This document shows, piece by piece, positions 1-23,747 of a stretch of DNA of 64,000 nucleotides. The stretch comes from an uncultured Candidatus Saccharibacteria bacterium (GTDB lineage: Bacteria; Patescibacteriota; Saccharimonadia; Saccharimonadales; JAGQNJ01): positions 20,982 through 84,981 of the forward strand of contig CAZDDV010000001.1 of assembly GCA_964504275.1 (NCBI GenBank), in the 5' to 3' direction. The notes under the pieces were generated by a model, which was not told the DNA's origin, made no database searches, and worked only from the letters and a program-made list of their open reading frames with translations. The stretch's first letter is position 1. The number at the start of each line of letters is the position of its first letter. A program made the position numbers and the translations under genes.

Positions 1-560
1 GAACGGCAAGTAATCACTCAAAAATTCCGCAATTGCATCTTCATCATCGGGCGCAAAGTAAATATCAAGCGCTGGCAAAAACCGTTTGAGCGGCAGGAGA
101 GAAATCGAATCAATTTGGCCTTCTTCGATAATTGCAAAAGATTTAAAATCGCTCAATGCGTAGGTTTTTTGACCAACCCTAATAACGCCGTCGCTCAGTT
201 GGTAGTTCAAAACTGCCGGCTTGCGATTTGCTAAAATCATAAATCCAATTGCGAAAACAATCATGACACCAACCGTAAAAATACTTCGCGTGATAGCGAA
301 TGTAGCGATCAAGAAAATCGCTGTAGCGACGCCAAATTTTATAAACCAGACAGGCGATTTTTCGTGCGCAATATATTCCGATGCTGTCCAAGAAATGTGT
401 TCGCTATCTTGCTCCATAGCGTGTTGCTGGGGAACTTGCTGTTGCGGTTGCGGCGTAATTTGCGGCGCTGGCCCTTGCGCTGGCGTTTGTGGTTCTGGAG
501 ACGGCTGTGGTTGCTGCCCGCCTGGCTGGAATGTCCACCCCGGTTGTTGCTGATCCTGCA
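1..560 (-). CDS. Hypothetical membrane protein, partial (3' end outside window). N-terminus is Pro/Gln-rich and low-complexity, followed by two TM helices and a bacterial PH-like (DUF304/YdbT-like) C-terminal region.
   Basis: ATG at 558-560 (minus). Translation reads MQDQQQPGWTFQPGGQQPQP...FIKFGVATAIFLIATFAITRSIFTVGVMIVFAIGFMIL...; open to the window edge. No strong SD. Confidence 0.4.
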
Positions 561-927: not shown

Positions 928-1017
928 TGGCGGAAGGGGAGGGATTCGAACCCTCGGAACCGTTGCCGGCTCGCTGGTTTTCAAGACCAGTACCTTCAAC
1001 CACTCGGTCACCCTTCC
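928..1017 (-). tRNA. tRNA-Ser (anticodon UGA), class II with long variable arm.
   Basis: Reverse complement reads GGAAGGG...; anticodon stem CTGGT/ACCAG with loop CTTGAAA (UGA); T-arm GAGGG-TTCGAAT-CCCTC; CCCTTCC-G-CCA. Confidence 0.85.
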
Positions 1018-2563: not shown

Positions 2564-2598
2564 GCCAAATAAAATACCCCCAAACTTATGGGGGTATT
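2564..2598 (-). terminator. Rho-independent terminator at the end of the pilin-like gene array.
   Basis: On the minus strand: AATACCCCC-ataagttt-GGGGGTATT followed by TTATTT. Confidence 0.5.
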
Positions 2599-2625
2599 AA
2601 TATTAACTACTAAGCCTGTTTTTAC

Positions 2626-3042
2626 TTAAGCTTCTATAACTCGGCCAAGTACAAATCGAACAATTATTTGTGCCATCGCAACAATGACCAAACCGATGAT
2701 AGCGTATAAAATAGTGTTTTTGGCACCGCCAACGCTTCCGGAGTCACCGCCAGAAGTGATGTACTTAAGACCGCCAACGATAATCATAATCACCGACACA
2801 ACACCGACGACAAGCGAAAAGATGTTAATGACAGATGCAACGATTCCATCTAGCTTGGATTTCGCGTCTTCTGTGCTGGTAGTACAAGTTGCAGGGCCAG
2901 TTTTCAGACATGTCCCGCTGTCTAGTGATCCGGTAATATCCGGTTGTTCTGCGGCGAAAACCGCTGCGGGTGTTAAAACTGCGAACAGTGCCACACCTGC
3001 GCTGGCAAGAGCTAGGCTAATTCTTTTTACTAAACTTTTCAT
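2626..3042 (-). CDS. VirB2/TrbC-like T4SS pilin-family protein, paralog A. Signal peptide, Cys-pair ectodomain, conserved C-terminal TM hairpin.
   Basis: SP ...AVFA|AEQ. C45/C53. C-terminal VSVIMIIVGGLKYITSGGD...AKNTILYAIIGL. SD AAGGAA. Confidence 0.55.
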   Translation of the reverse strand: MKSLVKRISLALASAGVALFAVLTPAAVFAAEQPDITGSLDSGTCLKTGPATCTTSTEDAKSKLDGIVASVINIFSLVVGVVSVIMIIVGGLKYITSGGDSGSVGGAKNTILYAIIGLVIVAMAQIIVRFVLGRVIEA

Positions 3043-3131
3043 TCAATAGTTCCTTTCTTTTGAAATACTTTCTTTAAATAAATCTACCACAGTAGTTCCA
3101 TGGGCGCAAGAAACGCTTATACTTATTGTAC

Positions 3132-3563
3132 TTATGTTGCTGGTGGGGCAGGGGTGCCCAGTATACGCCCCAAAACAAAACGAACGATAATCTGCGCCAT
3201 TGCAGTAACCGCCAGGCCAATAATCGCATAGAGGATCGTGTTCTTGGCACTATTAACACCACTGGAATCTCCTGCAGAAGTAATATACTTTAACCCGCCA
3301 ACAATAATCATAATTACAGATATAACACCGACGATTAGGGATAGGATATTAATTGCCGCCGCGATAACACTATTAATCCTAAGTTGAGCATCTGCAGTCT
3401 GCCCGGGATTACAGGCAGTATTTTGCAAATTTGCTCCCTTACAAGCTTCTTCTTTTGAGTTTGGAAAAAGCTGGGCATGAGCCGGCACGGCAAAAACTAG
3501 CGGAGACATGACCGAGAGCGTTATAAGTGCTGCCCTGATAAGTATTTTTAGTTTTTGAAGCAT
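3132..3563 (-). CDS. VirB2/TrbC-like T4SS pilin-family protein, paralog B.
   Basis: SP ...PAHA|QLF. Two Cys. C-terminus nearly identical to A (ISVIMIIVGGLKYITSAGD...AKNTILYAIIGL). Confidence 0.55.
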   Translation of the reverse strand: MLQKLKILIRAALITLSVMSPLVFAVPAHAQLFPNSKEEACKGANLQNTACNPGQTADAQLRINSVIAAAINILSLIVGVISVIMIIVGGLKYITSAGDSSGVNSAKNTILYAIIGLAVTAMAQIIVRFVLGRILGTPAPPAT

Positions 3564-3582
3564 ATGTTTTTCCTTTTTATTT

Positions 3583-3984
3583 TTATAGTTTACTAAGCAA
3601 AAATGTCACTATCGCCTGAGCGATTGCGGCCACCGCTAAGCCCGCAAGCGCCGCTATAATGGCTTTTTGCATCGTAGCAATTGTATTTGAATCTCCGTTT
3701 GAGACCACAATTCTAAGTCCAGCAATAACGACTGTAAAGACAGCCACAATGCCCAAGATCATCACGAGTAATTGCACCGCTTTGGTCATGATGCCCTCTG
3801 GCCCCAAGATTGGACTAGAGCTAGAACCCGTCGCATTATCCTTGCAAACGGCTGGAGCGTCACCGGCTCGATTGCAAACAGGTTTTAATATATCTGTCTG
3901 AGCTAACGCGACGCTTACTGGCATGAACGTAATACCTAGACTCACTAAGATCAGTACAAACATATTACGGAGTCTTTTGATCAT
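3583..3984 (-). CDS. VirB2/TrbC-like T4SS pilin-family protein, paralog C.
   Basis: Start at ATG 3982-3984 (MIKRLRNMFVLILVSLG...ALA|QTD), overlapping the upstream stop as TGATG. Motif PVCNRAGDAPAVCKD, then GLRIVVSNGD...QKAIIAALAGL. Confidence 0.5.
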   Translation of the reverse strand: MIKRLRNMFVLILVSLGITFMPVSVALAQTDILKPVCNRAGDAPAVCKDNATGSSSSPILGPEGIMTKAVQLLVMILGIVAVFTVVIAGLRIVVSNGDSNTIATMQKAIIAALAGLAVAAIAQAIVTFLLSKL

Positions 3985-4319
3985 CACAGCCTCCCTAAAA
4001 CTACAGAAATAATTGCCTCGGCCAACACAACTATGGCCAGCCCAACACACGCATAAATAATAGTTTGGCGGGCCTTAGCGATAGATTGCGAATCTCCTTG
4101 TGATGTCACTAATTGAAAACCCGCAATAACGATGTAGATAACGGTAACGATACCTATAACTCCAAAGAACACCTGTAAAAAACGGCCTACGACTGGCGCA
4201 TCCAACTGCGCTGTGGGCAAAAGAGTGCCGTTACACGCATCAGGCCCAGCGTTGAAATCACAATTCGCTACGCCTAGTGTCCTCAGGTTTATTTCGTGAG
4301 CAATCAAAAAAGCGTTCAT
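3984..4319 (-). CDS. VirB2/TrbC-like T4SS pilin-family protein, paralog D.
   Basis: NCDFNAGPDACNG Cys pair. C-terminus VIAGFQLVTSQGDSQSIAKARQTIIYACVGL. No obvious cleavable signal peptide. TGATG coupling at both ends. Confidence 0.45.
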   Translation of the reverse strand: MNAFLIAHEINLRTLGVANCDFNAGPDACNGTLLPTAQLDAPVVGRFLQVFFGVIGIVTVIYIVIAGFQLVTSQGDSQSIAKARQTIIYACVGLAIVVLAEAIISVVLGRL

Positions 4320-4720
4320 TATTTTATCACCTGTCCAACTACATAAGTCAGTACTGTTGCAGAGGCAAGCGCAATCACCATCCCAACAACAGATTTTATA
4401 ATAGTATCGCGAGCCTGGGCGGTTTTATCTGGCAAGCCCTGGCTTGAAATATACCGAACGCCGCCCACTATAATAAAAACCGTTGCGACCATAACCGCAA
4501 TACGTAGAAGCATGTCGGTTACCGCCGCCACAATGAGCCAAACATCGTTTATAGAGCTAATCTGCGGAATGCACTGTAATCCACCGATGGAATCAGTCAG
4601 TAGTTGGCCTGGCAAGTATTTATACCATGTAGGGAACACCCCTAGTATTTCTGTACCTGGCTTGCAAGAAGCGGTCGCCGCCTGTCCAAAATTTTGCAAA
4701 AAATTAACAAACGAAATCAT
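4319..4720 (-). CDS. VirB2/TrbC-like T4SS pilin-family protein, paralog E.
   Basis: C19/C50. C-terminus FIIVGGVRYISSQGLPDKTAQARDTIIKSVVGM. SD AGGAAA. Confidence 0.45.
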   Translation of the reverse strand: MISFVNFLQNFGQAATASCKPGTEILGVFPTWYKYLPGQLLTDSIGGLQCIPQISSINDVWLIVAAVTDMLLRIAVMVATVFIIVGGVRYISSQGLPDKTAQARDTIIKSVVGMVIALASATVLTYVVGQVIK

Positions 4721-4728
4721 ATTTTTTC

Positions 4729-5634
4729 CTAGAGTAACCCTCTCGGGATAATCCAGTTTAGTATAGCATAGATAAACATAAAGAAGACCATCGCGCCAAC
4801 ACTACTAACGATGCGCTTAATCGCGTCCGCTGTGGCCTTTGGGTTACCTCCAGATGTAGTAAATTGTATACCGCCGACAATTATAGATGCAACGCAAACA
4901 ATACCTGCCCCAACTGACAAAAAGCGGGAAATTGCCAAGATCATGTCAATGATTGCATTACCCTCGCCCCTACAGCCTATGTCAATACTGGTAAATGTTT
5001 GCCCTTGATCGTCGCTTCCACACTTATACTTATCCGCTTCTGGCAATTTAACTTTTTTGTTGCTCACGGCTAAGGCTGGCTGCGAAGACGTTGCACCAGT
5101 AATGTTTGAGCACTCAGTTTCACGAGCATTCGCCTGAACCGTGCCAGCACCGACACCGCCAGACAACACAAAACACCCGGGCGCTAGCGGAACATCGGCC
5201 GGGCAATTAATTTTTCTAAAGCCACCCACGCTTGCAGATTCAAAACAATTCGCAACCGTGGTGTCATAGGTGATAATCGGCAAGTTGCCAGGCTTATCGT
5301 CCCTAGGAAGCAGTGGAGTAGATGTTGCTTCTGGGCCATTGGCATCATAGCAAGTTGTCTCGACTGGCTTTGTTGGCCCGTATTGCGTGCCCCAACTTAT
5401 ATAGCATTTACCGCCCTGTGGCTCAAAGGCTGGATAAATTGTTTTGATGCCCTCACAGGAGCGGCTGAGCCAAATAATTACCGTTGATCCTGTCGCGGGC
5501 GCACTGACCCAGCAACCTGGTTCAAACCGATGTGCCGAAGCTGGTTGCGGCCTATACAAGCTTGTGCCAAATACACCAAACGCCAAAAATAATCCAGAAA
5601 AGAACGCCAAGAATAAATTACGATTTTTTATCAT
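4729..5634 (-). CDS. Large pilin-family paralog F. About 220-aa ectodomain with 10 Cys, same C-terminal TM hairpin; candidate tip/adhesin subunit.
   Basis: SP/TM MIKNRNLFLAFFSGLFLAFGVFG. C-terminus VASIIVGGIQFTTSGGNPKATADAIKRIVSSVGAM. SD GGAGC. Confidence 0.45.
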   Translation of the reverse strand: MIKNRNLFLAFFSGLFLAFGVFGTSLYRPQPASAHRFEPGCWVSAPATGSTVIIWLSRSCEGIKTIYPAFEPQGGKCYISWGTQYGPTKPVETTCYDANGPEATSTPLLPRDDKPGNLPIITYDTTVANCFESASVGGFRKINCPADVPLAPGCFVLSGGVGAGTVQANARETECSNITGATSSQPALAVSNKKVKLPEADKYKCGSDDQGQTFTSIDIGCRGEGNAIIDMILAISRFLSVGAGIVCVASIIVGGIQFTTSGGNPKATADAIKRIVSSVGAMVFFMFIYAILNWIIPRGLL

Positions 5635-6136
5635 TCGGTTGCTCCAGTTCTATATCATACCGATTTATGCGATAAGTATCTTCTTGTTTCACAATATTAA
5701 ACACGAACTTCAGCATCGTGCCGCCTTGTTTGGTTGGGCACGTGTAATTAACTATCTGTTCGGAATTTGCCGCGTCCGCCACGCACTGGGAGACATCAAC
5801 GTTGGCAAAGACAGATGGTACTTGGGCAACATACTTTTCTTGGGTAACTAGGTTCTGGGTCTCGCTAGAAAATAATTTAAAGGCGTTTTCGTATGTTCCG
5901 TCTGCCATGTGGCGAAAGTATTGCTCTGGTACTTGGGAAGCAACATCAAACTTGGGGCCACTGGCTGTTTTGACATTATTATTAGACATTACAAAAATCA
6001 GGCCAACAATCAGACCGAATACGCCAATCACCCCACCGAACAAAACAAAAGGGTTTGGGCCTTTTTTCTGAATTGGGGCTTGTTGGTTAGTTATAAAATC
6101 GTAATTTGGTTGTACGTTTTGGTTTTGATCGTTCAT
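5618..6136 (-). CDS. Hypothetical bitopic membrane protein (N-terminal TM plus extracytoplasmic domain). Possible VirB8-like T4SS component.
   Basis: ATG at 6136 is preferred over the GTG at 6211. Single TM PNPFVLFGGVIGVFGLIVGLIFV. Position in the operon. Confidence 0.3.
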   Translation of the reverse strand: MNDQNQNVQPNYDFITNQQAPIQKKGPNPFVLFGGVIGVFGLIVGLIFVMSNNNVKTASGPKFDVASQVPEQYFRHMADGTYENAFKLFSSETQNLVTQEKYVAQVPSVFANVDVSQCVADAANSEQIVNYTCPTKQGGTMLKFVFNIVKQEDTYRINRYDIELEQPNDKKS

Positions 6137-6261
6137 GATTTGATTCCATCGTACCGCAAAAACGGCTATCAGAAAAGCCCCTGCAACTTGAATCCGATTT
6201 TCCGGTATCACAAAGGTTTCTTTTGTTATAAAATAAGCACGACAGGTTAATTTAGCTACTT

Positions 6262-9200
6262 ATGCAAAATATTTTTAAAGATTTTAAGGTGTGGTCTACT
6301 CGGTTTGCCCTTTTTACAGCAACCTTTGTGTTTTTTAGCACTCTTATTCTTGGCACCATGACCGCGCAAAAAATTAACGCGCAAACTAAGGTGCTACTAT
6401 CGCCGTCCGAACATGCAATTAAGTATCAGGTTATGCAGTTCCTAAAAGTTTGTGGCGACAACAAGGGCTGGCACAGTAGCCAAGGAGCTGGAACTCGGAG
6501 TGAGGGCCTCTCGGCAGAGGAGCTCAACCAAGGGCGGTTCTTTGATGATGAAATTAAAGATTCAACGATTTTTGGAAACGAAATCAGTGTAGGAGCGCTT
6601 ACTGATGATGATGATGGCAATTTCAACTGCTTAGTAAAGCAAGGGACACCCGCAGTTGTTGTTAACCAGCAATATGACGTACAAAAGGCGGTGCAATACC
6701 AGCAAGAAGACCTTATAAAGTTTCTCGTGGAGAGCAATGTATATCGTGTGGGCGAAAACGGCAGATATTACCTACATGATGAAGAAGATTCTGATCGCAG
6801 CAACAAAGTTATTGAGTATTTCAAGAATAACAATCAGGGATATTCATTCGACGGAGATCTGCCTGATAGTGCGAAATATTTTAACTGGAAGGCGTCCTAT
6901 TTAAAATTTTGTGCAGAAGGTGGAAAGCCAATCGATAGTGGCAGCATAGAATTGCCAAATGTAGGAGAAGACGGGAAAAGACAAAACGACAAGTTTCAAA
7001 TAAAAAGTGATGCGGCCGGAAATAAATCGGTTGGTAGAGGAATGGGCCAAGGAGATCGCGACGAATTCAGTTGTAATGAAATAGCCGACGGAATGCGCGC
7101 CACGGCCGACGCTGCAGTCAAGGGCGTCGAGGATTACGTAAAAGCTGGTGGTAAAGTTAAGCCGAACCCAAATGCGCCGGGTACGGCGGATGATGATAGC
7201 CCAACCTGCGAAAGCTCTGGCGGCATTACTTGGGTGATCTGCCCATTTATCAACGGTTTGGCCGAGCTTGCCGATGGTGCATTCGAAAAACTAATAATTC
7301 CACTACTCAAGACGAGTCCGGTCGACACGACCAATACTAGCAGCCCTATATTCCAGGTTTGGCTGGGGATGCGTAATGTTGCCAATATTTTGCTAGTTAT
7401 TGCCATGATCGTCATTGTGTTTGGTCAGGCAATTGGCGGAGGATTGGTAGACGCCTATACCGCCAAAAAAGTACTACCCCGCATCTTGGCAGCTGCAATT
7501 ATGATAAACCTGTCTATTTATATGGTCGCGTTTGCGGTCGATGTTACGAACGTTATTGGGCAAGGCTTATCAAGACTTATCTATGCACCATTTGATCAAG
7601 TTGGAGCTTTTAAATTTAATCTTTCTTCCTCTACAGCTGGGCTTGGTTTTGTAGGAATGATAGCTGCAAGTGCCGCCATTTGGAAGATCGGCGCTTTGAT
7701 TCCATATTTGTTACTCTTCGTTCTCCTACCCCTCGTACTCGCGGCAGTAGGTGTAATCTTTACGCTCGTACTGCGAATGGGGCTCATTCAGTTCCTGATA
7801 ATCAGCAGTCCGGTTGCTTTTGTGCTGTACTGCCTACCGAACACCGAAAAGTACTTTCAGAAATGGTGGAGTTTATTCATAAAGACATTAATGGTTTACC
7901 CTATCATTGTTCTGATATTCACATTAGCCGACGTAATCGCAGTTACAACGGACATTGCCGCTCAAGAAAGCGATCAAGAAGTTACAGCTGCATTTGGTCA
8001 ACTGATCTCTGTTGTTCTTCTGGTGCTGCCATTATTCATGGTACCCTACGCATTTAAGCTTGCTGGTGGTGCCGTTGGTGCCGTACACGGCGCCCTTTCT
8101 ACTGGCGGCAAAAAGAGCGTCGAAGCCATCAAGGGCAACCCCAACGACCCAAATAGTTTGCGCAACAGAACAAAACGTAACGTTGGATCCTCAATGGTTA
8201 AAAACCGCGCTCAGCTTGTTCGATCAAACCTCGACTATAAAGGCACGGGTTTGAACGCGCGACTCCGTCGAAAATTTGGCGAAAAAGTTAACTATGGAAA
8301 TATAATGGATAAAGAAGCCGAGATCAACGAAGATGCCGCTAAGCGAATGGGCCGAACGATTGGGGCGGGTGACGATCGATACATACGAGCACGGACTTCT
8401 TTGCCACTTTTCCAAAAAGCGGGAGGGGGCGAAACTACTAATACAGCAGAAGCTGTGATGGATACCAGTGGGACAGCTCTGCGCCTACTCAATAAAGATA
8501 CGGGTCAAGCAATGCGCACTTCACTTAATGGACAAAAACGTTTTACTGATGTCGACTACAAAAAGTCTACGCAACTATTCCAAACCATGGGTGAAATGCA
8601 AGAGGCAGTAAACCATGAAGCCAAAAAAACACTTACCGATGGCGACACCGACCGCTTAGTCGGAGGTTACGGCGATTGGGCAAAGCAAGAAGGATTGACG
8701 AAAGAGCAGGCCAGCGGATTATTCACAGGAGTTGCTTTTGCGCGGCAAGGTGAGCGACTTGAACTCAAGCACAGCACGGTGGATGAAGAGATTGACCCTG
8801 ACGATCCGAAAAAACGCAGACTATTCGTCAAAAGCGCAACTGACAATATGAGCGGCACATCAATTGATAGTACCGGTACTGTGAATAAAATCGGGGGACG
8901 CGATGCGTTTGTTCAAGAGCTCTATGACAAAAAGGGCAGTTGGGCAGTTTCACAAATGCATGATTCAACTATCAATCAAGTTGGTGAAGCTAAAGAAAAA
9001 TATGCTGCAGAAATTAAAGACCTATCTTCCAGAGAATCACTCGGAACACTCAGCGAGCAAGAACTTGGAAGGCTTAAATTATCACGGGAAAAACTTGATC
9101 ACATTCAAGAAATGGAAGAATCTTGGGTGGCCGACCCAACCCGAACCGCAACAGGAATTCCAATGGGTGCAGTCGATGACAAGGGTACGCCTGGCTATAG

Positions 9201-9405
9201 CGGCCTCAGCGGAGCAGCCGCTGGTGTATTAGCCGCCGCCAAACGAAGCGCTTTAACAACCCAGCTTGGCGCCGACGGCAAAACATATACAGTTCGAAAG
9301 ATCTACGACAATAAAGGCAATCTGGTGCCCCAAAACGTGCGTGGTGCTGCCATGCCGCCGAGAGGGCCACTCTCTCCAGGTGGTCCAGGAGTAACATCAT
9401 TTTAG
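6262..9405 (+). CDS. VirB6/TrbL-like T4SS polytopic membrane protein (1047 aa) with a large N-terminal extracellular domain and a long C-terminal tail.
   Basis: SP/TM, then a Cys-containing domain, then a block of at least 6 TM helices (aa 370-600), then a charged low-complexity C-terminus. Position upstream of the VirB3/VirB4-like genes. Confidence 0.45.
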   Translation: MQNIFKDFKVWSTRFALFTATFVFFSTLILGTMTAQKINAQTKVLLSPSEHAIKYQVMQFLKVCGDNKGWHSSQGAGTRSEGLSAEELNQGRFFDDEIKDSTIFGNEISVGALTDDDDGNFNCLVKQGTPAVVVNQQYDVQKAVQYQQEDLIKFLVESNVYRVGENGRYYLHDEEDSDRSNKVIEYFKNNNQGYSFDGDLPDSAKYFNWKASYLKFCAEGGKPIDSGSIELPNVGEDGKRQNDKFQIKSDAAGNKSVGRGMGQGDRDEFSCNEIADGMRATADAAVKGVEDYVKAGGKVKPNPNAPGTADDDSPTCESSGGITWVICPFINGLAELADGAFEKLIIPLLKTSPVDTTNTSSPIFQVWLGMRNVANILLVIAMIVIVFGQAIGGGLVDAYTAKKVLPRILAAAIMINLSIYMVAFAVDVTNVIGQGLSRLIYAPFDQVGAFKFNLSSSTAGLGFVGMIAASAAIWKIGALIPYLLLFVLLPLVLAAVGVIFTLVLRMGLIQFLIISSPVAFVLYCLPNTEKYFQKWWSLFIKTLMVYPIIVLIFTLADVIAVTTDIAAQESDQEVTAAFGQLISVVLLVLPLFMVPYAFKLAGGAVGAVHGALSTGGKKSVEAIKGNPNDPNSLRNRTKRNVGSSMVKNRAQLVRSNLDYKGTGLNARLRRKFGEKVNYGNIMDKEAEINEDAAKRMGRTIGAGDDRYIRARTSLPLFQKAGGGETTNTAEAVMDTSGTALRLLNKDTGQAMRTSLNGQKRFTDVDYKKSTQLFQTMGEMQEAVNHEAKKTLTDGDTDRLVGGYGDWAKQEGLTKEQASGLFTGVAFARQGERLELKHSTVDEEIDPDDPKKRRLFVKSATDNMSGTSIDSTGTVNKIGGRDAFVQELYDKKGSWAVSQMHDSTINQVGEAKEKYAAEIKDLSSRESLGTLSEQELGRLKLSREKLDHIQEMEESWVADPTRTATGIPMGAVDDKGTPGYSGLSGAAAGVLAAAKRSALTTQLGADGKTYTVRKIYDNKGNLVPQNVRGAAMPPRGPLSPGGPGVTSF

Positions 9406-9411
9406 GTAATT

Positions 9412-10488
9412 ATGGCGCAGTATAAAGTTTTACAGGATATAGAGGCAGAGGATAAGCTCCTTGGTCCATTAAGTTTGCGGCAATTTATCTACGCGATTAT
9501 TGTGATTGTGCTGGGGTTTATCGCTTTCAAGCTCGTGACCGTTGCTTGGTATTTGGTAATTCCTTTTTTACCGCCGATGGTGTTTTTTGGTTTATTGGCG
9601 GCGCCGATTGGCCAAAACCAGTCGTCTGAAGTTTGGCTGCTGGCCAAAATTCGCTTTTTTGTTTTTCCGCGACTGCGCATCTGGAACCAATCTGGAATAG
9701 AAGAACTAGTACACATTACCGTGCCTAAAAAAATCGAAAGATACTTGTCAAAGGGTTTTAGTAAAGACGAGGTTCGCAGCCGTCTGAACGCCCTTGCCAA
9801 CACACTGGATACGCGTGGATGGGCGATAAAAAACATTACGCCAGATGTTTTTAAACGCGCAACAGCGTTTAACTCTGCACAATCTGCTGATCGATTAATT
9901 GACATCAATAGTATTCCACAAAATGCACAGCCAAACGAAATGCCTGGCGACGATGTATTTGACGCACAAAGCAGCCCGCTGGCACGAATAACCAACCAGA
10001 ATATTCAGGCGTCGGCTGAGCAGCACCGTCAGCAATTGCTTGACAACATGCAAAACCAAATTGCCCAAACGCGAACAAGCGCGCCGCTAGCGCCAACAGC
10101 TCCGCAAACTACTCCCACGGCAAGCACACCAAATCTACCAAGCCTACCCAATCCAGTTGTTGTGTCGCCACACCCCGAAACACCAACGTCAACACCAATA
10201 CAACCGCAACCAATCTTGAGCAGTACCGGCCAACCCGTCCACGAAATGCCACAACCTACGCAACAACCCATACCGCTACCTCAACCGGCGCCAATGCCAG
10301 AGCCGATGCCGATTACTCCATATCAGCCGGCGCCTGCCAATATGCTGCAAAAGCCACAAGCGCCGATGACAAGCACAGCGCAAACTGTTAAACTAAATGA
10401 TGTTACGAATACTGATCGCAGTTCGATGAATGTGCCGCATGCAGACAACGATGATTCGCCAGACGAAGTCGTTATCTCGCTTCACTAA
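9412..10488 (+). CDS. PrgI/VirB3-like small membrane protein fused to a Pro/Thr/Gln-rich low-complexity C-terminus.
   Basis: N-terminus LLGPLSLRQFIYAIIVIVLGFIAFKL...IPFLPPMVFFGLLAAPIG (two TM helices). Position immediately 5' of the VirB4 region. Confidence 0.4.
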   Translation: MAQYKVLQDIEAEDKLLGPLSLRQFIYAIIVIVLGFIAFKLVTVAWYLVIPFLPPMVFFGLLAAPIGQNQSSEVWLLAKIRFFVFPRLRIWNQSGIEELVHITVPKKIERYLSKGFSKDEVRSRLNALANTLDTRGWAIKNITPDVFKRATAFNSAQSADRLIDINSIPQNAQPNEMPGDDVFDAQSSPLARITNQNIQASAEQHRQQLLDNMQNQIAQTRTSAPLAPTAPQTTPTASTPNLPSLPNPVVVSPHPETPTSTPIQPQPILSSTGQPVHEMPQPTQQPIPLPQPAPMPEPMPITPYQPAPANMLQKPQAPMTSTAQTVKLNDVTNTDRSSMNVPHADNDDSPDEVVISLH

Positions 10489-10502: not shown

Positions 10503-11399
10503 GTGTTCGGTGGGCAAAATTATATGAATCCACAGCAAAATTTACCAAACCAGACTGTTCCACAATCTGCTCCGCCAAGTGCGGCCTTCGCGCCAAACCC
10601 GGTAGTTGTGTCTGGCCAGCCACAAAACGGCAACCAAACAAATTTACAACCGCCACAACCACAAGTAAAAGTTAACCCAACCAGTACGCAAAATGTGTTG
10701 CAAGTTGCCGAGATCCGAGACGGCATTGTGATCATGAATGACGGCTCATTCCGATCTGTTATTATGGCGAAATCGATTAACTTCGACCTGATGAGCCAGA
10801 TCGAACGCGAAGGTGTCGAGGGCGGCTACCAAGCGATGTTAAACTCACTGTATTTTCCAATCCAGATTTTTATGCGCAGCCAAAAAGTTGATTTGCGACC
10901 GTACATCGAAAAGCTCGACAAAATCCGCACCGAACACGACAACATGCTGTTAGCATTATTAATGGAAGATTACATAAATTATATTTCTGAGCTATCGACG
11001 CAAACCAACATCATGGACAAAAAATTCTATCTGGTGATCCCGTATTTTCCAAAGGCCGACGTGCAAAAAGCGATTACCCAAAGTAAAAACTTTTTTTCTG
11101 GACTAGGAAATATTTTTAACTCCAAGCCAACACATGTGACTATCAACGAAAAGGATTTAGAGGATGCAAAAATTGAACTCCGAAACCGCGTGCAATCAAT
11201 TTTGGGCGGACTAATGCGATGTGGTGTCAAAGCCCTGCCGCTGGATACGCAAGAATTAATCGAGCTATTTTATGACAGCTACAACCCCGATACCGCCACA
11301 CGCCAACAGCTCAAAAACTTTGATGATTTATCTGTGCCAATCGTAACCAAAGGCAAAGGCGCTGCGCCACAACCAAACCTCAACAAGGATCTCCAATGA
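10503..11399 (+). CDS. Hypothetical protein; possible detached N-terminal domain of VirB4.
   Basis: GTG (10503) or ATG (10524) start. P/Q-rich N-terminus. The stop overlaps the virB4 ATG (ATGATG at 11396-11401). Confidence 0.35.
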   Translation: MFGGQNYMNPQQNLPNQTVPQSAPPSAAFAPNPVVVSGQPQNGNQTNLQPPQPQVKVNPTSTQNVLQVAEIRDGIVIMNDGSFRSVIMAKSINFDLMSQIEREGVEGGYQAMLNSLYFPIQIFMRSQKVDLRPYIEKLDKIRTEHDNMLLALLMEDYINYISELSTQTNIMDKKFYLVIPYFPKADVQKAITQSKNFFSGLGNIFNSKPTHVTINEKDLEDAKIELRNRVQSILGGLMRCGVKALPLDTQELIELFYDSYNPDTATRQQLKNFDDLSVPIVTKGKGAAPQPNLNKDLQ

Positions 11400-13321
11400 T
11401 GTTTGGTAAAAAAATCCCTACTAATGACCCGGTGGCGCTAGCACAAGCCCAGCGCGCCCGCGAACAGCAAGAAGTAAGCGTTGCGTTCCAAAAAGGCGTG
11501 GTGGCGCTGCGAGATTTTATTGCACCAAGTTCGATCGAACTTAAAAACGCTTACTTTCACATCGGCACACGACTAGCCCGAACCTTTTACGTCTACGCCT
11601 ATCCGCGCCAGGTGTACACCGGCTGGCTCAGCGGCATGATTAATATCGACGAGATTATTGATTTATCAATGTATATCTACCCCGTAGAAAGCCAAGTCGT
11701 GCTCGAAAACTTGCGCAAAAAAGTTTCTCAGCTAGAAGCAGGGCTGCAAATTGACGCCGAAAAGGGCCGCGTGCGCGACCCGGGCAAACAAGCCGCAATT
11801 CAGGACGCCGAAGAAATGCGCGACAAATTGCAAGTTGGCGAAGAACGCTTCTTCCGCCTGGGCTTTTACTTTACGCTGTATGCCGACAGCTTGGATGAAC
11901 TCGACTTTGTCACGCACAAGATTGAATCGATGCTCGGCCAACAACTGGTGTACTCCAAGGTCGCAACAAGCCAGCAAGAACAAGGGCTCAACAGTACGAT
12001 TCCGCAGTTTACTGACCAGCTGCAAATTCGCCGCAACATGAGTACCGGAGCAATTAGCACGACATTCCCGTTCACTAGTGCCGACCTCAGCCAAGATTCT
12101 GGCATTTTGTACGGTATTAATATGCACAACTCTGGTCTTGTTATTTTTGATCGCTTTACGCTCGAGAACAGCAACTCGGTGGTGTTTGCAAAATCTGGTG
12201 CGGGTAAATCGTTTGCGGTCAAACTCGAAGCGCTGCGCAGCATGATGTTCGGCACCGAGGTTGTTATTATCGACCCAGAAAACGAATACCAGCGCATGTG
12301 CGAAGCAGTTGGTGGTGCGTATGTTCGGCTCAGTCTGTCGTCGGCGACTCGAATCAATCCTTTTGATTTGCCAAAAGTCATCGATACCGACGAATCCGAC
12401 AACGCCCTGCACAGCAACTCGATCACACTTCTGGGCCTACTGCGCCTAATGATGGGTGGCGCGCAAACCCAAATGTTGGCTTCGGCCTCTAGTGGCGGTG
12501 GTGGCTTTGCGCCGTCGTTATCTCCGGTTGAGGAAGCCGATCTTGATGCGGCAATTATCGAAACGTACGCCAAAGCTGGCATAACCAAAGATCCGCTGAC
12601 GCACAACTCGCCGCCGCCAACAATTACTGATTTATACGATACACTGCTACACATGGGCGGAACTGGGCCACAACTTGCCCAGCGACTGCGCAAATACACC
12701 ACTGGTACGTTTGCGGGAATCTTTAGCCAGCAGTCCAACATCGACATCAATAACCAAATGGTGGTGTTTAACATTCGCGATTTAGAGGACGAACTTCGCC
12801 CGGTTGCTATGTACATTGTGCTCAATTACATCTGGAACAAAACCAAATCCGACCAACGAAAACGCTTGTTGATCGTCGACGAAGCCTGGCAATTAATGAA
12901 GTATGAAGATTCGGCCAACTTTATGTTTAGTCTTGCCAAACGTGCCCGAAAATACAACCTGGGTATTACGACGATTTCGCAGGATGTCGAAGATTTCATG
13001 GCTAGCAGAATGGGCCGCGCCATCGTCGCTAATGCTTCGATGCAATTATTGCTCAAGCAGGCGCCTTCGGCAATTGATGTGTTGTCAGATATCTTTAAAC
13101 TCACCCAGGAAGAAAAAAGTCGCCTAACGCAGTTCCCGATTGGTCAAGGATTATTCTTTGCTGGCCAAAACCATGTGCATATTCAGATTATCGCCAGCCC
13201 AACCGAAACCGGCCTAATTACCACCAATCCTGCGCAGGTCCAACAAATGAACGAACAAGGACAACTTGAGGGCGAGCAGGGCACCATCGACCTTAAAAAC
13301 CGCCTCCAACCGGGCGTATAA
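11396..13321 (+). CDS. virB4: VirB4/TrbE-family T4SS ATPase.
   Basis: Walker A FAKSGAGKSF and Walker B LLIVDEAWQL. 641 aa. Confidence 0.8.
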   Translation: MMFGKKIPTNDPVALAQAQRAREQQEVSVAFQKGVVALRDFIAPSSIELKNAYFHIGTRLARTFYVYAYPRQVYTGWLSGMINIDEIIDLSMYIYPVESQVVLENLRKKVSQLEAGLQIDAEKGRVRDPGKQAAIQDAEEMRDKLQVGEERFFRLGFYFTLYADSLDELDFVTHKIESMLGQQLVYSKVATSQQEQGLNSTIPQFTDQLQIRRNMSTGAISTTFPFTSADLSQDSGILYGINMHNSGLVIFDRFTLENSNSVVFAKSGAGKSFAVKLEALRSMMFGTEVVIIDPENEYQRMCEAVGGAYVRLSLSSATRINPFDLPKVIDTDESDNALHSNSITLLGLLRLMMGGAQTQMLASASSGGGGFAPSLSPVEEADLDAAIIETYAKAGITKDPLTHNSPPPTITDLYDTLLHMGGTGPQLAQRLRKYTTGTFAGIFSQQSNIDINNQMVVFNIRDLEDELRPVAMYIVLNYIWNKTKSDQRKRLLIVDEAWQLMKYEDSANFMFSLAKRARKYNLGITTISQDVEDFMASRMGRAIVANASMQLLLKQAPSAIDVLSDIFKLTQEEKSRLTQFPIGQGLFFAGQNHVHIQIIASPTETGLITTNPAQVQQMNEQGQLEGEQGTIDLKNRLQPGV

Positions 13322-13332
13322 ATATTTAGATT

Positions 13333-16300
13333 ATGGGATTACCAGCAAGAAACCTCAACGAAGATGATGACCGAAAACTAAGCGCCGCCGAGCGAGCAGA
13401 GCGACAATGGGGGATGGATCCATCGTCTGAGCCAAAAAACCCAAACGATGACGATACAAAAAAATCGGCACGAGAACGTGCTGATGAAAGTTGGGGGATG
13501 AATTCTGGTGGCGAATCTGACACCAAAGATGGCGGACTGTACAACCCATCCGGCGATTCCGACGAACGCGCCGCTCTTGATGGATCTAAGCCAGATAGCG
13601 CGATGGGCGTGAAAGAGCTTTATGCTGGCGGTGACAAAGGCGGTGCGAAGCGGATTATCATAGAGGACTTCTTTCGCAAAAAAGGTATTCCAATAATTGG
13701 TGGTGGCGCTGGAGCCATAATGATCATTATGTTTTTATTCGTGTCGTTTTTTTCTATAAATAAAACTGCCCATATAATTGAAGATATCGAAAACAAAGTG
13801 GGTAATGTGCCCGAGTATGCCGTGGAGCGTCGCTTGGAATACTACATGAGCCGTTATTTGATTCTGCGACAACTTGCAAAAGCCGGCGTTCCGGAGGCTA
13901 CGATCCAAAAAGAATATGTGTACCTCAGTAAAAAGGGTAGTACTTTTGATACACTCTACACTAACTGGAAGGGAGCGAAGCTAGAGGGCCTCTTAGAAAG
14001 TGAGTATGGTGTGCGCTTGCAGCCACGTAATCTAGAGGTAAATACCAAGGTGTGGAATCGCGAATATGCGCAACCGAATCGTTGGGAGATTGAAATCGTA
14101 GATGCTGGCAAGGCAAGAGCAAAAGGCATTAACCCGGGTTCGTTAAATTCTATAGAATCGCGAAAATTTATAAATATTCTTGCCAACAAAGAAACCCGTT
14201 CGTTTCAGGTACTCAAGCGTTACAACGTGCGTAAAAACTTAAAAAAATACAATGGCATCGATGGCTGGAAACAATTTGCATACGACAAAAGCGAAAAATA
14301 CAAAAACGCCACAGATCGTTACCGAGAAGGTAAAAAAAACTTTAAGAAAAAAACCATAGAGAACACGATCAAAAGAGTCAACGTGAATTGGGGCAATTAT
14401 ATGATTTGTCTTATCGATGGCGACCCAAAAAAAGCCTGCAAGGATATTCGCAAGGGCAAGACCCCTTCCACAGAAGTAGGCAGCATGATTGATGAAAGCG
14501 AACTAACTGGAGTGGTCGACGAGGCGCTAGACAAAAAGATAGTACGCGAAGGAGCCGAAGAAGCAGGCGAACGCGCAGGGAAAGAGATCACTCAAAAAGT
14601 AACGGCGTCGACGGTCAAAAAATTCTCTGCTCGCGCAATACCTGTGGTTGGCTGGGTGATCGGCGCTAGCCATCTTATTAACTCTGCTGATAATGGAATA
14701 CTAAGCCAGGTCATATACCAAAGAAACGCTACTCAGTATGGGGCGTTCGGCGCAGGGTTCATGAGCGGGTCTGACCAAATAAAGTCTGGTATCGACATAG
14801 ACGGTGACGATGCGCGAGTTCTCAATGAAACGTTTACCAATTACGAGCAGGAAAGCCAAGTTTACCGCGCTTCTCGGCCAGGCTATAAAATTGAACCGGG
14901 TAAAAAAATAAAACAAGACTGCAATAACGACGGCGACACAACTGATGCAGATGATTTTGTGACATCCGATGACCCTGTGTGCGCGTCTAAGAAAATACTC
15001 CAACCCAAAGAAACTTTCACAGAAGACCCTGCCTGGGAGGTTGTTGCCGGACTATCCCAAAAACTAACTGGAGAAGACAGCTGGATAAAATCAGTGATCG
15101 ACGTTTTTGAAGGTGGGTTAGCAACAGTTATGGAAAAAACAGGCATCTCGGCTGGTATTGCATATATCATAGAAGAAACTGGTGCAGATAAAGCGCTTGC
15201 TGAGAAATTTCAAGAGCTGCTCGCTAAAATAGCGGCCCCTGTTATTACTGGTGCAGAGTCAGGAGGCTCAGCATACGATGCGTTATTCGCTAGCATCTCG
15301 GTCCAAAAATCTTCTCTTGGTGGCGGTGTTGGCGAAAATCGTGAAGATACAATTGGAGGTGCGGTTTTAAGCATGGAGGAGGTCGCCCAGATAAAAGAGG
15401 ATCAGTACGATAAACGACAGTTAGAGTTGAGGGGCACTGAGAAGTTTGCCAGATACTTCTCGCCCGATATCCCCGAAAGTCTAACGTCACAAGCGGTGAT
15501 GGCGCTACCGTCATCCTCGACGCAAACTGTGAGCAAGTTTAGTAGTTTGCTCAATCCAGGAAATTTTATTAAAGGGTTGGCATCAGCTTTCACGAGCAGT
15601 GCAGAAGCCCAAAACTCACAAGACTATAACTTCTTTAATGCGATTTACTACGGATACCCGTCGGACAGCGACGTATTCAATGCAAATGATGGCAGCGGGA
15701 TGGAGCACGATGAGTTGTATAAAAAATACAAATGCGATGAGCCTATTGAGAAGCGTCAGGAAAATTCAATGGGCAATGTTGAAGGAATTCCGTTCAAAGT
15801 GGCAGTCAAAGTAGACCCATGCTTGCTCGAAAAGGCGGTCGAAGACGCCGGCAGTCGATACTTTACCGGTGCGTATGACGAAGGTATCGACGAAGGGTCG
15901 AAAAGAACCTCTGGCGGCCAAACTGGCCTACTTAACCCGGGTGGCTTGGCGTGGCCAACCAAGGCCGAAGGTTCTCATATATCTAGCTGTTTTAACGAAC
16001 CGCGCTCTGGCGGGCCCCACAAAGGAATGGATATTGCCATTGCAGCCGACACTCCAGCGTTTGCAGTCGCTGACGGCGAAGTCATCATAGCTGGCGGCAA
16101 GGCAGACGGCTACGGACCAAACTATGTCGCCATAAAACACACCAAAGCCGACGGCACCACCTTTGTTTCTGGTTATGGACACATGAATTCAAAAACAGTT
16201 GAGGTTGGCGACAAAGTTACACAAGCTCAGCAAGTGGGCACTATTGGTAGTCTGGGTTATTCTACAGGACCCCACATGCACGTCATCATAAATGTCGGTG

Positions 16301-16395
16301 GGAAAGATAATTTTAATGGCGATGTTGACCCGCTTACTAATGGGATGGAAGTTCCCCCGGGAGCACTGAACGCAAAAGGGTGCCCGAAGTACTAA
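13333..16395 (+). CDS. T4SS-associated cell-wall hydrolase. Acidic N-terminal tandem repeats, one TM, a large central domain and a C-terminal M23/LytM peptidase.
   Basis: Repeats AERAERQWGMDPS / ARERADESWGMNSG. TM IIGGGAGAIMIIMFLFVSFF. M23 motifs PHKGMDIA...GHMNS...GPHMHV. Confidence 0.6.
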   Translation: MGLPARNLNEDDDRKLSAAERAERQWGMDPSSEPKNPNDDDTKKSARERADESWGMNSGGESDTKDGGLYNPSGDSDERAALDGSKPDSAMGVKELYAGGDKGGAKRIIIEDFFRKKGIPIIGGGAGAIMIIMFLFVSFFSINKTAHIIEDIENKVGNVPEYAVERRLEYYMSRYLILRQLAKAGVPEATIQKEYVYLSKKGSTFDTLYTNWKGAKLEGLLESEYGVRLQPRNLEVNTKVWNREYAQPNRWEIEIVDAGKARAKGINPGSLNSIESRKFINILANKETRSFQVLKRYNVRKNLKKYNGIDGWKQFAYDKSEKYKNATDRYREGKKNFKKKTIENTIKRVNVNWGNYMICLIDGDPKKACKDIRKGKTPSTEVGSMIDESELTGVVDEALDKKIVREGAEEAGERAGKEITQKVTASTVKKFSARAIPVVGWVIGASHLINSADNGILSQVIYQRNATQYGAFGAGFMSGSDQIKSGIDIDGDDARVLNETFTNYEQESQVYRASRPGYKIEPGKKIKQDCNNDGDTTDADDFVTSDDPVCASKKILQPKETFTEDPAWEVVAGLSQKLTGEDSWIKSVIDVFEGGLATVMEKTGISAGIAYIIEETGADKALAEKFQELLAKIAAPVITGAESGGSAYDALFASISVQKSSLGGGVGENREDTIGGAVLSMEEVAQIKEDQYDKRQLELRGTEKFARYFSPDIPESLTSQAVMALPSSSTQTVSKFSSLLNPGNFIKGLASAFTSSAEAQNSQDYNFFNAIYYGYPSDSDVFNANDGSGMEHDELYKKYKCDEPIEKRQENSMGNVEGIPFKVAVKVDPCLLEKAVEDAGSRYFTGAYDEGIDEGSKRTSGGQTGLLNPGGLAWPTKAEGSHISSCFNEPRSGGPHKGMDIAIAADTPAFAVADGEVIIAGGKADGYGPNYVAIKHTKADGTTFVSGYGHMNSKTVEVGDKVTQAQQVGTIGSLGYSTGPHMHVIINVGGKDNFNGDVDPLTNGMEVPPGALNAKGCPKY

Positions 16396-16396
16396 T

Positions 16397-18268
16397 ATGA
16401 GGATACCTTTTACGAATCTGATGATTTGGCTACGACTACTAAAGAGACTGTCCTTGTTGATACTGGCTGTTCTGTTTTTATCGAGTCTTGCTCTGACCAC
16501 CAAAGTTTCGGCACAAACACCTCAGCCGACAGAGTTAACCCGCGATCAAGCCATGAACTATCCGATGCTTGGTTTTGGTGGCTGTAGTGGCACCCCGGGA
16601 AGCTCAGCGCCCTCAGCAAAAATAAATGGCAAAAATATCTACATACTTGGTGACTCAATCACCGCCGGCGCTAAAGATGCATACAAAGATGCGTTCAAGG
16701 ACAAGGACCTAACCATCAGTGCTAGAGTGGGACGTTCGTGGGGAACGGCAGGGCAAGACTCGCCAGCAAACATTGGCAGCCAAGGCACTGGTAAAGAGGC
16801 CTTCGCGGCCGACACTGAAAAAATTAAATCCGCGGACGCAATTATTATTGCGCTCGGCACCAACCAAATGGGTGGAGATGAAGCCAGCCAAAACCCGATC
16901 GGGAGCATCATTACCGCTTTCCGTGGCGTCAATGAAAAAGCCCCAATCTGGTGGGTAAATATCGCTAACAGCGGGGTCGCGGGAGTACCTAGTTTCAACG
17001 AAACACTCAAACAACAGGCAGGCGATAAGTATACCGTGATCGACTGGGCAAAAACCGTTGACCCAACTGGGGATGGCACAAATAACCCCGGCAAACTCCT
17101 GTCGACCGACGGGACACACCCAAGCTCCGAGGGTACCAAAAAATTGGTTGATTTGGTCGTTAGTGCTGTCACAAGCGGCGCTGGCGTACAAAATAATGGA
17201 GTTGCGGCTGGTGACTGTAAATGTAGTAGCGGTGGCACTACAGGCGGAGGAGACGCGATCACCAAATTCTTGCAAGCGCTGGCATTCCAAGAAAGTGGCG
17301 GACAGTTGAACTTAGTGAGTTCTGGTTCAGCGCGTGGAAAATTCCAGTATATTGACTCGACGTGGAAAGGCGTCGCCCAAAAGTACTATCCACACGCGTT
17401 GAAATACGCAAACGCAAACGGGGCGCCAGAATCAGTCCAAGACGCACTCGTCTATATCGAGTACACCGATAAATTTAACACTTTTAACGGCGATCTGTTC
17501 AAGCTGGCTGTCAGCCATTTCTATCCTTTGGCAAACCAGGAGGCTAAGTGGCTCGACATAATTCCGCCATCAAATGTCGTAACTCCAAGACAATACGCAG
17601 AGAAATTAGTTGCGGGATATAACAGTGGTGCCGGAAAAGAAATAAAATTCTACTATAACGATGCGCCGGAGTTTAAAGAATCTCTTGCTGCTGTTGGTGG
17701 CCAAACTACCGCTAGCGTAAAAAGCGGTGAGGGCAGTTGCAGCGCGCCTGGCCAAATCGGACCAGGTGAAGCCGCTGGTAAGATCGTGGAAACCGCTCTT
17801 AACCTGGCATGGGACACCAAAAAAGACGGATTAATTGAAGAGAAAGACGCAAAACCAACCTACCAAGCGGCCATGCCAAAATTTAATGGAAGCACCAACA
17901 CAACCGGCGATCCAAAACTAACGCCATGGTCCGATTGTGGTGTATTTGTCGCAACGGTCATGCATATGAGCGGCGTTGATACAGCATATCCAAAACGTAA
18001 CACTCTTACTCAAGAACCATATACGACAAACTCCGAAAGATACGAGCGCATCACGAACGTGACCGACTCTTCACAACTAAAGCCCGGGGACATCATTATA
18101 AACAAACACCACACAATGATTTTCGTCGGCCCACAAACAGGCCCAGCGGGTGAATACAACACCGTTGACGCATCATTTGGTGATCGCGTACCCGGAGCAA
18201 AAGTCTTTGCTCCTCATCCAGACACCCAAGACCCTGATTCGTATGATGCGTATAGGATAAAAGGATAA
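16397..18268 (+). CDS. Secreted multidomain peptidoglycan hydrolase: SGNH/GDSL hydrolase plus lytic-transglycosylase-like domain plus C-terminal CHAP/NlpC-P60-like domain.
   Basis: Signal peptide. GDSITAG block. FLQALAFQESGG (SLT-like catalytic E). SDCGVFVATVMHMSG...HHTMIFVG (Cys/His). Confidence 0.5.
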   Translation: MRIPFTNLMIWLRLLKRLSLLILAVLFLSSLALTTKVSAQTPQPTELTRDQAMNYPMLGFGGCSGTPGSSAPSAKINGKNIYILGDSITAGAKDAYKDAFKDKDLTISARVGRSWGTAGQDSPANIGSQGTGKEAFAADTEKIKSADAIIIALGTNQMGGDEASQNPIGSIITAFRGVNEKAPIWWVNIANSGVAGVPSFNETLKQQAGDKYTVIDWAKTVDPTGDGTNNPGKLLSTDGTHPSSEGTKKLVDLVVSAVTSGAGVQNNGVAAGDCKCSSGGTTGGGDAITKFLQALAFQESGGQLNLVSSGSARGKFQYIDSTWKGVAQKYYPHALKYANANGAPESVQDALVYIEYTDKFNTFNGDLFKLAVSHFYPLANQEAKWLDIIPPSNVVTPRQYAEKLVAGYNSGAGKEIKFYYNDAPEFKESLAAVGGQTTASVKSGEGSCSAPGQIGPGEAAGKIVETALNLAWDTKKDGLIEEKDAKPTYQAAMPKFNGSTNTTGDPKLTPWSDCGVFVATVMHMSGVDTAYPKRNTLTQEPYTTNSERYERITNVTDSSQLKPGDIIINKHHTMIFVGPQTGPAGEYNTVDASFGDRVPGAKVFAPHPDTQDPDSYDAYRIKG

Positions 18269-23656: not shown

Positions 23657-23747
23657 ATGTAATCACTTAGTCGTTACGGTGCAGTCGTCAGCGTGGTATC
23701 ATACATATACAATATATCCGCTTTGAATGCACGTGAGGAGTTCGCCG

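Follow-up and report, generated by a model that had tools for sequence, protein, structure and literature searches.

A putative T4SS_pilin-family gene array of six positionally conserved members in an origin-proximal type IV secretion locus of a Candidatus Saccharibacteria bacterium

A tandem array of six minus-strand genes was found in a 64,000-nt stretch of the Candidatus Saccharibacteria (JAGQNJ01) genome assembly GCA_964504275.1 (contig CAZDDV010000001.1, 20,982 to 84,981 of the forward strand); the whole of this stretch is referred to here as the window, and all coordinates are positions within it. The six genes, designated P1 to P6, most probably encode the pilin-like subunit set of a chromosomal, origin-proximal type IV secretion system (T4SS) that acts as proposed below (probability of roughly 0.75). 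An initial annotation, made from the sequence alone, had reported six tandem genes of 111 to 301 aa with a homologous C-terminal hairpin, and the corresponding open reading frames (ORFs) were present at 2626-5634. The array and the features that complete its operon are as follows.

P1, 2626-3042, minus strand: 138 aa, with a signal peptide, Cys45/Cys53, and the hairpin at residues 57-137; last gene of the operon.
P2, 3132-3563, minus strand: 143 aa, with a signal peptide and Cys41/Cys51; close paralogue of P1.
P3, 3583-3984, minus strand: 133 aa, with a signal peptide and Cys37/Cys47; ATG start, the same choice made by gene callers.
P4, 3984-4319, minus strand: 111 aa, the shortest of the six, without a signal peptide, with Cys20/Cys29.
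P5, 4319-4720, minus strand: 133 aa, without a clear signal peptide, with Cys19/Cys50.
P6, 4729-5634, minus strand: 301 aa, with a signal peptide and an ectodomain of ~190 aa containing ten Cys.
U7, 5618-6211, minus strand: bitopic membrane protein of 197 aa as called (alternative ATG at 6136); first gene of the operon.
Intrinsic terminator, 2573-2598, minus strand: 10-bp stem with 5 G-C pairs and a T-run, directly past the P1 stop.

The minus strand from 2573 to 6211 constituted one compact operon transcribed in the order U7, P6, P5, P4, P3, P2, P1, and terminator, so that all six pilin genes lie in a single operon closed by the terminator. U7 and P6 overlapped by 17 nt at the P6 start, P6 and P5 were separated by 8 nt, the P5/P4 junction was TAATG, the P4/P3 junction was TGATG, and P3 and P2 were separated by 19 nt. 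A Shine-Dalgarno-like core of 4 to 6 nt (GGAG, AGGA, AGGTGA, GGGAGG, or AAGGA) preceded every start by 5 to 7 nt. The tight junctions and ribosome binding sites described in the initial annotation were thereby recovered, and the translational coupling implies that all six genes are therefore co-expressed. The 89-nt P2/P1 spacer (3043-3131) was the sole long intergenic gap in the array and contained a weak terminator-like hairpin (3103-3087, minus strand); expression of P1 may differ from that of the five genes upstream.

Alignment and hydropathy showed that the C-terminal hairpin, consisting of two hydrophobic helices and a charged loop, was homologous in all six proteins. The loop comprised ~20 residues and opened with [GA]-G-x-[KRQ]-x-x-x-S-x-G in every one of them. 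The comparison set consisted of 35 related species-level genomes with a complete six-gene array, yielding 210 hairpins; a hidden Markov model (HMM) of these hairpins matched P1 to P6 and no other ORF of the 64-kb window (E values of 7e-19 to 5e-29), and the pattern is therefore far beyond chance. The hairpins had been described as near-identical, a wording that did not survive alignment: P1 and P2 shared 74% identity in the hairpin, and every other pair shared 19 to 43%. The motif originally quoted for the hairpin was accordingly exact in P1 and P2 and only loosely present in the other four. P1 and P2 were 51% identical over their full lengths and shared a 188-nt DNA stretch at 71% identity. 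Identity among the N-terminal parts within the array was 22 to 39%, compared to up to 74% for the hairpins.

An AlphaFold2 (AF2) model of P1, based on an alignment of 51 sequences, contained two helices (residues 57-96 and 101-137) with a predicted local distance difference test score (pLDDT) of about 90, preceded by the signal peptide and by ~25 residues, modeled with low confidence, that include the Cys pair. Signal-peptide-like N termini were found in four proteins (P1, P2, P3, and P6) rather than the three first reported, and none was found in P4 or P5. One Cys pair N-terminal to the hairpin was present in each of P1, P2, P3, P4, and P5, in line with the pair initially described for the whole family; P6 departed from it, with ten N-terminal Cys. 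All ten were kept in four close full-length homologues of P6, these four being its only homologues at an E value of ≤1e-3, and three of the ten were invariant once a shorter fifth sequence was added.

Membership in the T4SS_pilin family (PF18895; gathering cutoff, 26.6 bits) was indicated directly for five proteins, with scores of 41.9 bits for P1, 38.0 for P2, 26.6 (exactly the cutoff) for P3, 35.3 for P4, and 40.0 for P5. P6 scored 21.5 bits, under the cutoff. Positional profiles constructed from orthologues were all homologous to that of position 1 in profile-profile comparison (P = 1e-41 to 2.3e-15), among them those of position 3 (P = 2.7e-32) and of the position 6 hairpin (P = 2.3e-15; probability, 98.5%); P6 is therefore regarded as a true though divergent member. 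On the basis of these scores and profiles, all six proteins are assigned to the T4SS_pilin family, and the T4SS pilin identity put forward in the initial annotation was upheld. At an E value of ≤1e-3, P1 had 3,674 homologues, and about half of the closest carried a precomputed match to TrbC/VirB2 (PF04956). Compared to PF04956 itself (cutoff, 27.9 bits), for which Agrobacterium VirB2 served as a control and scored 63.2 bits, P1 (21.0 bits), P2 (19.1), P5 (14.8), and P4 (14.6) were all under the cutoff, and P3 and P6 were unmatched. The Mbov_0395 pilin-like family of Mycoplasma integrative and conjugative elements (NF045849; cutoff, 40 bits) also remained unreached, the best scores being 37.4 bits for P4 and 28.2 bits for P1. 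That family resembles the array proteins in comprising a small two-transmembrane protein from a wall-less monoderm with an MPF-FATA T4SS, and it differs in that its gene is borne by a mobile element and present in a single copy. No match for P1 or P6 was found in PHROGs. When the six-paralogue alignment was used as a profile to search PDB sequences, the sole match was MacB (E value, 1.5), which was judged spurious.

The hairpin was most similar to that of PrgF_B2, encoded by Enterococcus faecalis plasmid pCF10. In hhalign, the family hairpin profile aligned with 69 of the 75 PrgF_B2 residues (score, 32.2; P = 2.5e-5; probability, 75%). For 100 shuffles that preserved the transmembrane (TM)/loop/TM arrangement, the score was 12.2 ± 2.3, the highest being 18.1, and none reached 32.2; reversed PrgF scored 18.2, and the unrelated two-TM protein AtpE scored 11.8. 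The ranking PrgF > VirB2 > AtpE was unchanged when the profile of each position was used separately. These comparisons indicate a specific pilin-type module that is nearer the monoderm PrgF type than the diderm VirB2 type; pilin families matched it specifically and unrelated two-TM proteins did not. PrgF, a VirB2-like protein, is essential in its Gram-positive T4SS, and the PrgF_B2 loop is accessible to labeling from outside only upon extrusion of the protein from the membrane (ter Beek et al. 2025, bioRxiv 10.64898/2025.12.18.695078). In both PrgF_B2 and the array proteins, a charged loop starting with the shared pattern G-[LV]-K-x-I-x-SG connects the two TM helices of the hairpin, and both come from MPF-FATA-type T4SSs of monoderms that include PrgI and VirB4. 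PrgF is encoded by a single gene of 75 aa without a signal peptide, ectodomain, or Cys pair, whereas the window has six copies of 111 to 301 aa with N-terminal extensions. The pCF10 system, moreover, has a role in conjugation and includes a relaxase and a coupling protein; neither was found among the window ORFs scanned.

The closest experimentally characterized counterpart of the locus is the T4SS of Ca. Southlakia epibionticum ML1 (SEML1_0006-0019), which is essential for epibiotic growth (Wang et al. 2023, Cell; PMC10633639). In ML1, PrgI is encoded by SEML1_0010, a 1088-aa VirB6-like protein, annotated as TrbL/VirB6 by structure, is encoded by SEML1_0013, and SEML1_0014-0019 are six PF18895 genes of 132, 185, 103, 126, 127, and 138 aa; in transposon sequencing, all six were scored GD/ES/ES, including the last gene of the operon (PMC10633639). 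As in ML1, the array in the window was situated head-to-head with a gene for a polytopic VirB6-like protein of roughly 1050 aa followed by PrgI and VirB4, was flanked by Hsp20, ComF, and tRNA-Ser genes, and had dnaA, dnaN, and recF nearby. As judged from sequence, the window array is, taken as an array, the orthologue of SEML1_0014-0019. The window represents another, environmental Saccharibacteria lineage, and essentiality is known for ML1 only. Furthermore, the pilin gene nearest the VirB6-like gene in the window is the 301-aa gene, with U7 preceding it, whereas the 185-aa gene of ML1 is second.

The initial annotation had also suggested that the six genes form a diversified family allowing antigenic or host-surface variation; on this reading, the paralogues would be interchangeable variants of one pilin, as has been proposed for Anaplasma, Bartonella, and Rickettsia. 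A recent survey voices the same idea: it describes 441 VirB2-like arrays, each of 2 to 11 genes, from 383 Patescibacteria assemblies, with an abundance in Saccharimonadia and frequent proximity to virB4 and dnaA; identity within arrays was about 25% on average and 54% at maximum, and Anaplasma and Bartonella served as the analogy for a proposed adaptation to different host strains (Quinonero-Coronel et al. 2025, Microb Genom; PMC12102498). Both the locus type and the host variation hypothesis are thus already in the literature. The window array resembles the arrays described there in its tandem pilin genes near virB4 and dnaA and differs in the closeness of P1 and P2 (full-length identity, 51%; hairpin identity, 74%); positional orthology and signal peptide classes are not mentioned in the passages of that survey consulted here. 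The tandem VirB2 genes of Anaplasma, Bartonella, and Rickettsia, the source of the survey's analogy, likewise comprise several divergent copies arranged in tandem next to a T4SS, but they are PF04956 members, occur in diderm intracellular pathogens, and are regarded as alternative variants, whereas the copies in the window belong to position-specific lineages.

Comparison across the 35 genomes bore on this suggestion from both sides. The N-terminal parts were far more divergent than the hairpins between species (mean pairwise identity, 19 to 33% compared to 39 to 67%) as well as within the array, and the P1 hairpin was the most conserved (67%). Copy number varied from 5 to 7 in some relatives (related loci L022, L025, and L057, 400-4500): seven-gene arrays had extra P1/P2-like copies, and five-gene arrays lacked one of P1 to P3, with the change always confined to this signal-peptide-bearing part. 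For 14 of the 210 hairpins, the nearest relative was within the same genome. These observations speak for interchangeable variants, but for positions 1, 4, 5, and 6, the nearest hairpin neighbor was at the same position of another genome in 35/35 cases each; positions 2 and 3 leaked to their neighbors, with a same-position nearest relative in 20/35 and 24/35 cases, respectively. Gene number, order, size classes, and signal peptide status were conserved by position across the related species. The order and size pattern (about 140, 135, 130, 100, 130, and then 150 to 330 aa) was constant in all 35 arrays. A signal peptide h-region was present in 34 to 35 of 35 sequences at positions 1, 2, 3, and 6, in 11/35 at position 5, and in 2/35 at position 4, the absence in P4 thus being kept in 33/35 orthologues. 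Two Cys were found at position 1 in 34/35 sequences, at position 2 in 30/35, at position 3 in 24/35, at position 5 in 27/35, and at position 4 in only 14/35; position 6, whose N-terminal part (signal peptide included) ranged from 62 to 258 aa across species, carried 2 to 12 Cys, mostly in even counts.

The divergence of the pilins was also unexceptional for the locus. Median identity to the window was 34 to 51% for the pilins, 46% for PrgI, 30% for the VirB6-like protein, 23% for the M23 peptidase protein, 51% for RecF, and 82% for VirB4. Shufflon- or cassette-type variation was considered as a mechanism, and silent cassettes, invertible segments, and long direct repeats were sought; only the P1/P2 paralogy was found, and such a mechanism was rejected. 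Together with the translationally coupled operon and the scoring of all six genes as essential in ML1, which would be unexpected of redundant variants, these results make the antigenic or host-surface variation family improbable. The six are most likely non-redundant because each position represents an old, separately conserved lineage and because all six were scored as essential in ML1, and we favor six non-redundant, old, co-expressed subunits over interchangeable variants.

In the favored explanation, the pilin-like proteins would be inserted into the cytoplasmic membrane so that the charged loop (G-x-K/R-x-x-x-S-x-G) faces the cytoplasm while both the N-terminal part and the C terminus lie outside. 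P1, P2, P3, and P6 would follow the Sec and signal peptidase route, and P4 and P5, which have no signal peptide, could be inserted as short N-tail proteins, for example via YidC, whose gene lies 18 kb away. An extracellular disulfide would form between the two Cys of the N-terminal pair. VirB4 would power the extraction of subunits from the membrane, and these would stack on the polytopic VirB6-like protein as a platform, in the manner of the VirB2 and PrgF_B2 systems. The product would be a short tube or pilus crossing the wall, its lumen lined by the loops and the N-terminal parts facing outward. P1, P2, and P3 may be the polymerizing (shaft) subunits, with P1 as the candidate major subunit, and P4, P5, and P6 may be low-copy initiator, tip, or adhesin subunits. 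P6, as the putative carrier of a species-specific, disulfide-rich host-binding domain, is a candidate tip or adhesin subunit. The structure would serve host contact or exchange for epibiotic growth rather than conjugation.

A more specific version, which we consider possible but rather doubtful, is that the T4SS pilus or conduit encoded by the array is obligately heteromeric and has a fixed parts list, in which P6, P5, and P4 form a conserved initiation or tip module and P1 to P3 form the polymerizing shaft, the whole being inherited together with the PrgF-like monoderm MPF-FATA machinery rather than borrowed from diderms. P6 would present a lineage-specific host recognition domain with five disulfides, P4 and P5 would be inserted without a signal peptide, and the P1-to-P3 shaft would be the sole part gaining and losing copies. 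If true, this would be the T4SS counterpart of the major/minor pilin organization of type IV pili.

Several observations weigh against the favored explanation of the six genes as a pilin-like subunit set. The match of the family hairpin profile to VirB2/TrbC, for which eight annotated alphaproteobacterial sequences from genes of conjugative plasmids were used, was weak (hhalign P = 0.0026; probability, 11.6%; P = 0.0065 to 0.17 for the individual positions), although the alignment covered 63 columns and was in register over both helices. The VirB2/TrbC label given in the initial annotation thus found weak support, the PF04956 scores being under the cutoff and the PrgF_B2 match being better. 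Diderm VirB2/TrbC proteins (T-pilus, R388, and F-type pili) resemble the array proteins in having a signal peptide and a two-helix hairpin with the termini outside and the loop inside, and in belonging to a VirB4 locus; they differ in that those systems have one major pilin plus VirB5, whereas the window locus is without outer membrane components. Fold searches were non-discriminating because the helical hairpin matches thousands of unrelated chains, and of the structural and HMM comparisons originally envisaged, the profile-profile comparison was the more useful. The AF2 model of P6 (alignment of 5 sequences) had a mean pLDDT of 53.8, and its ectodomain was unreliable. A profile of the TM region of the presumed VirB6-like protein (59 sequences) scored 11.8 against PrgH in hhalign, below the shuffles (14.0 ± 2.6). 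Export of the P4 and P5 N-tails without a signal peptide is an assumption, and the division into major and minor subunits is a matter of inference only. The essentiality of the upstream pilin genes of ML1 could stem from polar transposon insertions. There is no published sighting of a T4SS pilus on any Saccharibacterium or in Patescibacteria, and pilus formation is termed a possibility in one report (PMC12857230); the filaments that have been solved from Ca. Mycosynbacter, a cultured member of Saccharimonadia, are Pam pili, which are unrelated.

The least probable alternative is that the six proteins are not pilus subunits at all, being small membrane-resident T4SS channel components or anchors that show short extracellular peptides, a reading compatible with the generic fold of the hairpin, the unseen pilus, and the signal-less P4 and P5 but opposed by the pilin-specific similarity (PF18895, sub-threshold TrbC and NF045849, and PrgF_B2, with unrelated two-TM proteins unmatched), by the outside labeling of the PrgF_B2 loop only in extruded protein, and by the conservation in all six of a loop motif such as a lumen-lining element would be expected to have.

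The array was head-to-head with seven genes, which were followed by recF, dnaN, and dnaA.

Polytopic protein of 1047 aa, presumed VirB6-like platform, 6262-9405, plus strand: signal peptide and at least 6 TM segments at residues 373-594.
PrgI-family (VirB3-like) protein, 9412-10488, plus strand: PF12666, 34.8 bits.
Conserved 298-aa protein of the T4SS locus, 10503-11399, plus strand: without a Pfam match; 69% median identity in related loci.
VirB4-type ATPase, 11396-13321, plus strand: PF19044, 94.5 bits; PF12846, 47.4 bits.
Protein of 1020 aa with a C-terminal M23 peptidase, 13333-16395, plus strand: PF01551, 72.7 bits; predicted cell wall hydrolase with a VirB1/PrgK-like role.
GDSL hydrolase with a transglycosylase-like domain, 16397-18268, plus strand: PF13472, 40.6 bits; PF06737, 20 bits, under the cutoff.
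PEGA protein: after the GDSL/transglycosylase gene and before recF.

These genes place the array beside one T4SS, comprising PrgI/VirB3, VirB4, and the M23 and GDSL/transglycosylase wall hydrolases, consistent with the single apparatus anticipated in the initial annotation. The assignment of the organism to an epibiotic type of the candidate phyla radiation also stood: the VirB4 was 79 to 85% identical to those of 80 species-level Candidatus Saccharibacteria/Saccharimonadales genomes. The exact P1 protein was also found on environmental metagenome contigs (JGI 3300020057 and SRR6448209). The 1047-aa protein, with an ectodomain of ~330 aa and a C-terminal domain of ~450 aa, was among the fastest diverging of the locus and had no match in Pfam, NCBIfam, or PDB sequences; its position matches that of the "VirB6-like" gene of ML1, and it is considered probably VirB6-like from its position and size and by analogy with the structure-based annotation of SEML1_0013. 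The 298-aa protein, encoded between PrgI and VirB4, ranked second in conservation among the proteins of the T4SS operon across 77 loci and is a conserved core component.

U7 was predicted to have one TM segment, with only weak NTF2-like hints (DUF3887, E value of 0.016; MecA_N, E value of 0.073) and a marginal match in PHROGs (E value, 0.079). These hints raised a VirB8-like role for U7, but because a comparable ORF was present in only about 8 of the 35 related arrays, such a role is at most a possibility. Most of U7 was enclosed by a 16-nt inverted repeat (5615-5630/6092-6107; 94% complementary), which may be due to chance.

On its other flank, the array was adjoined by genes for Hsp20 and a ComF-type protein and by two tRNA-Ser genes (764-856 and 928-1017, minus strand) with GCT and TGA anticodons; in ML1, a tRNA-Ser gene likewise follows the ComF-type gene. 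A 110-aa ORF with a TTG start (221-553, plus strand) had an extremely Cys/Gly-rich tail (CCWGTCCCGCGVICGAGPCAGVCGSGDGCGCCPPGW) and no Pfam match; it lay in a stretch otherwise without long ORFs and represents either a real small peptide or an artifact. The YidC gene (23727-24677, plus strand) was located beside dnaA. The rest of the window was occupied by a large surface glycan cluster of roughly 40 kb (25287-63779), with ORFs annotated as encoding GT1, GT2, and GT4 transferases, a Wzt-type ABC ATPase, a flippase, PMT-like transferases, a UDP-glucose dehydrogenase, and a sugar transferase.

Few machines have been shown to be essential for Saccharibacteria to live as epibionts; the T4SS is among them, and nothing about it is odder than the pilin array. 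The window provides a further clear instance of a published locus type, not a new kind of system, and the increments made here are modest: positional orthology, signal peptide classes conserved by position, and a hairpin match that favors PrgF over VirB2. They narrow the question from the reason for many variable pilins to the role of each of six conserved subunits. PrgF_B2 of Gram-positive plasmids would be their nearest experimentally tractable relative, which may be useful for experiments in Southlakia and Nanosynbacter.

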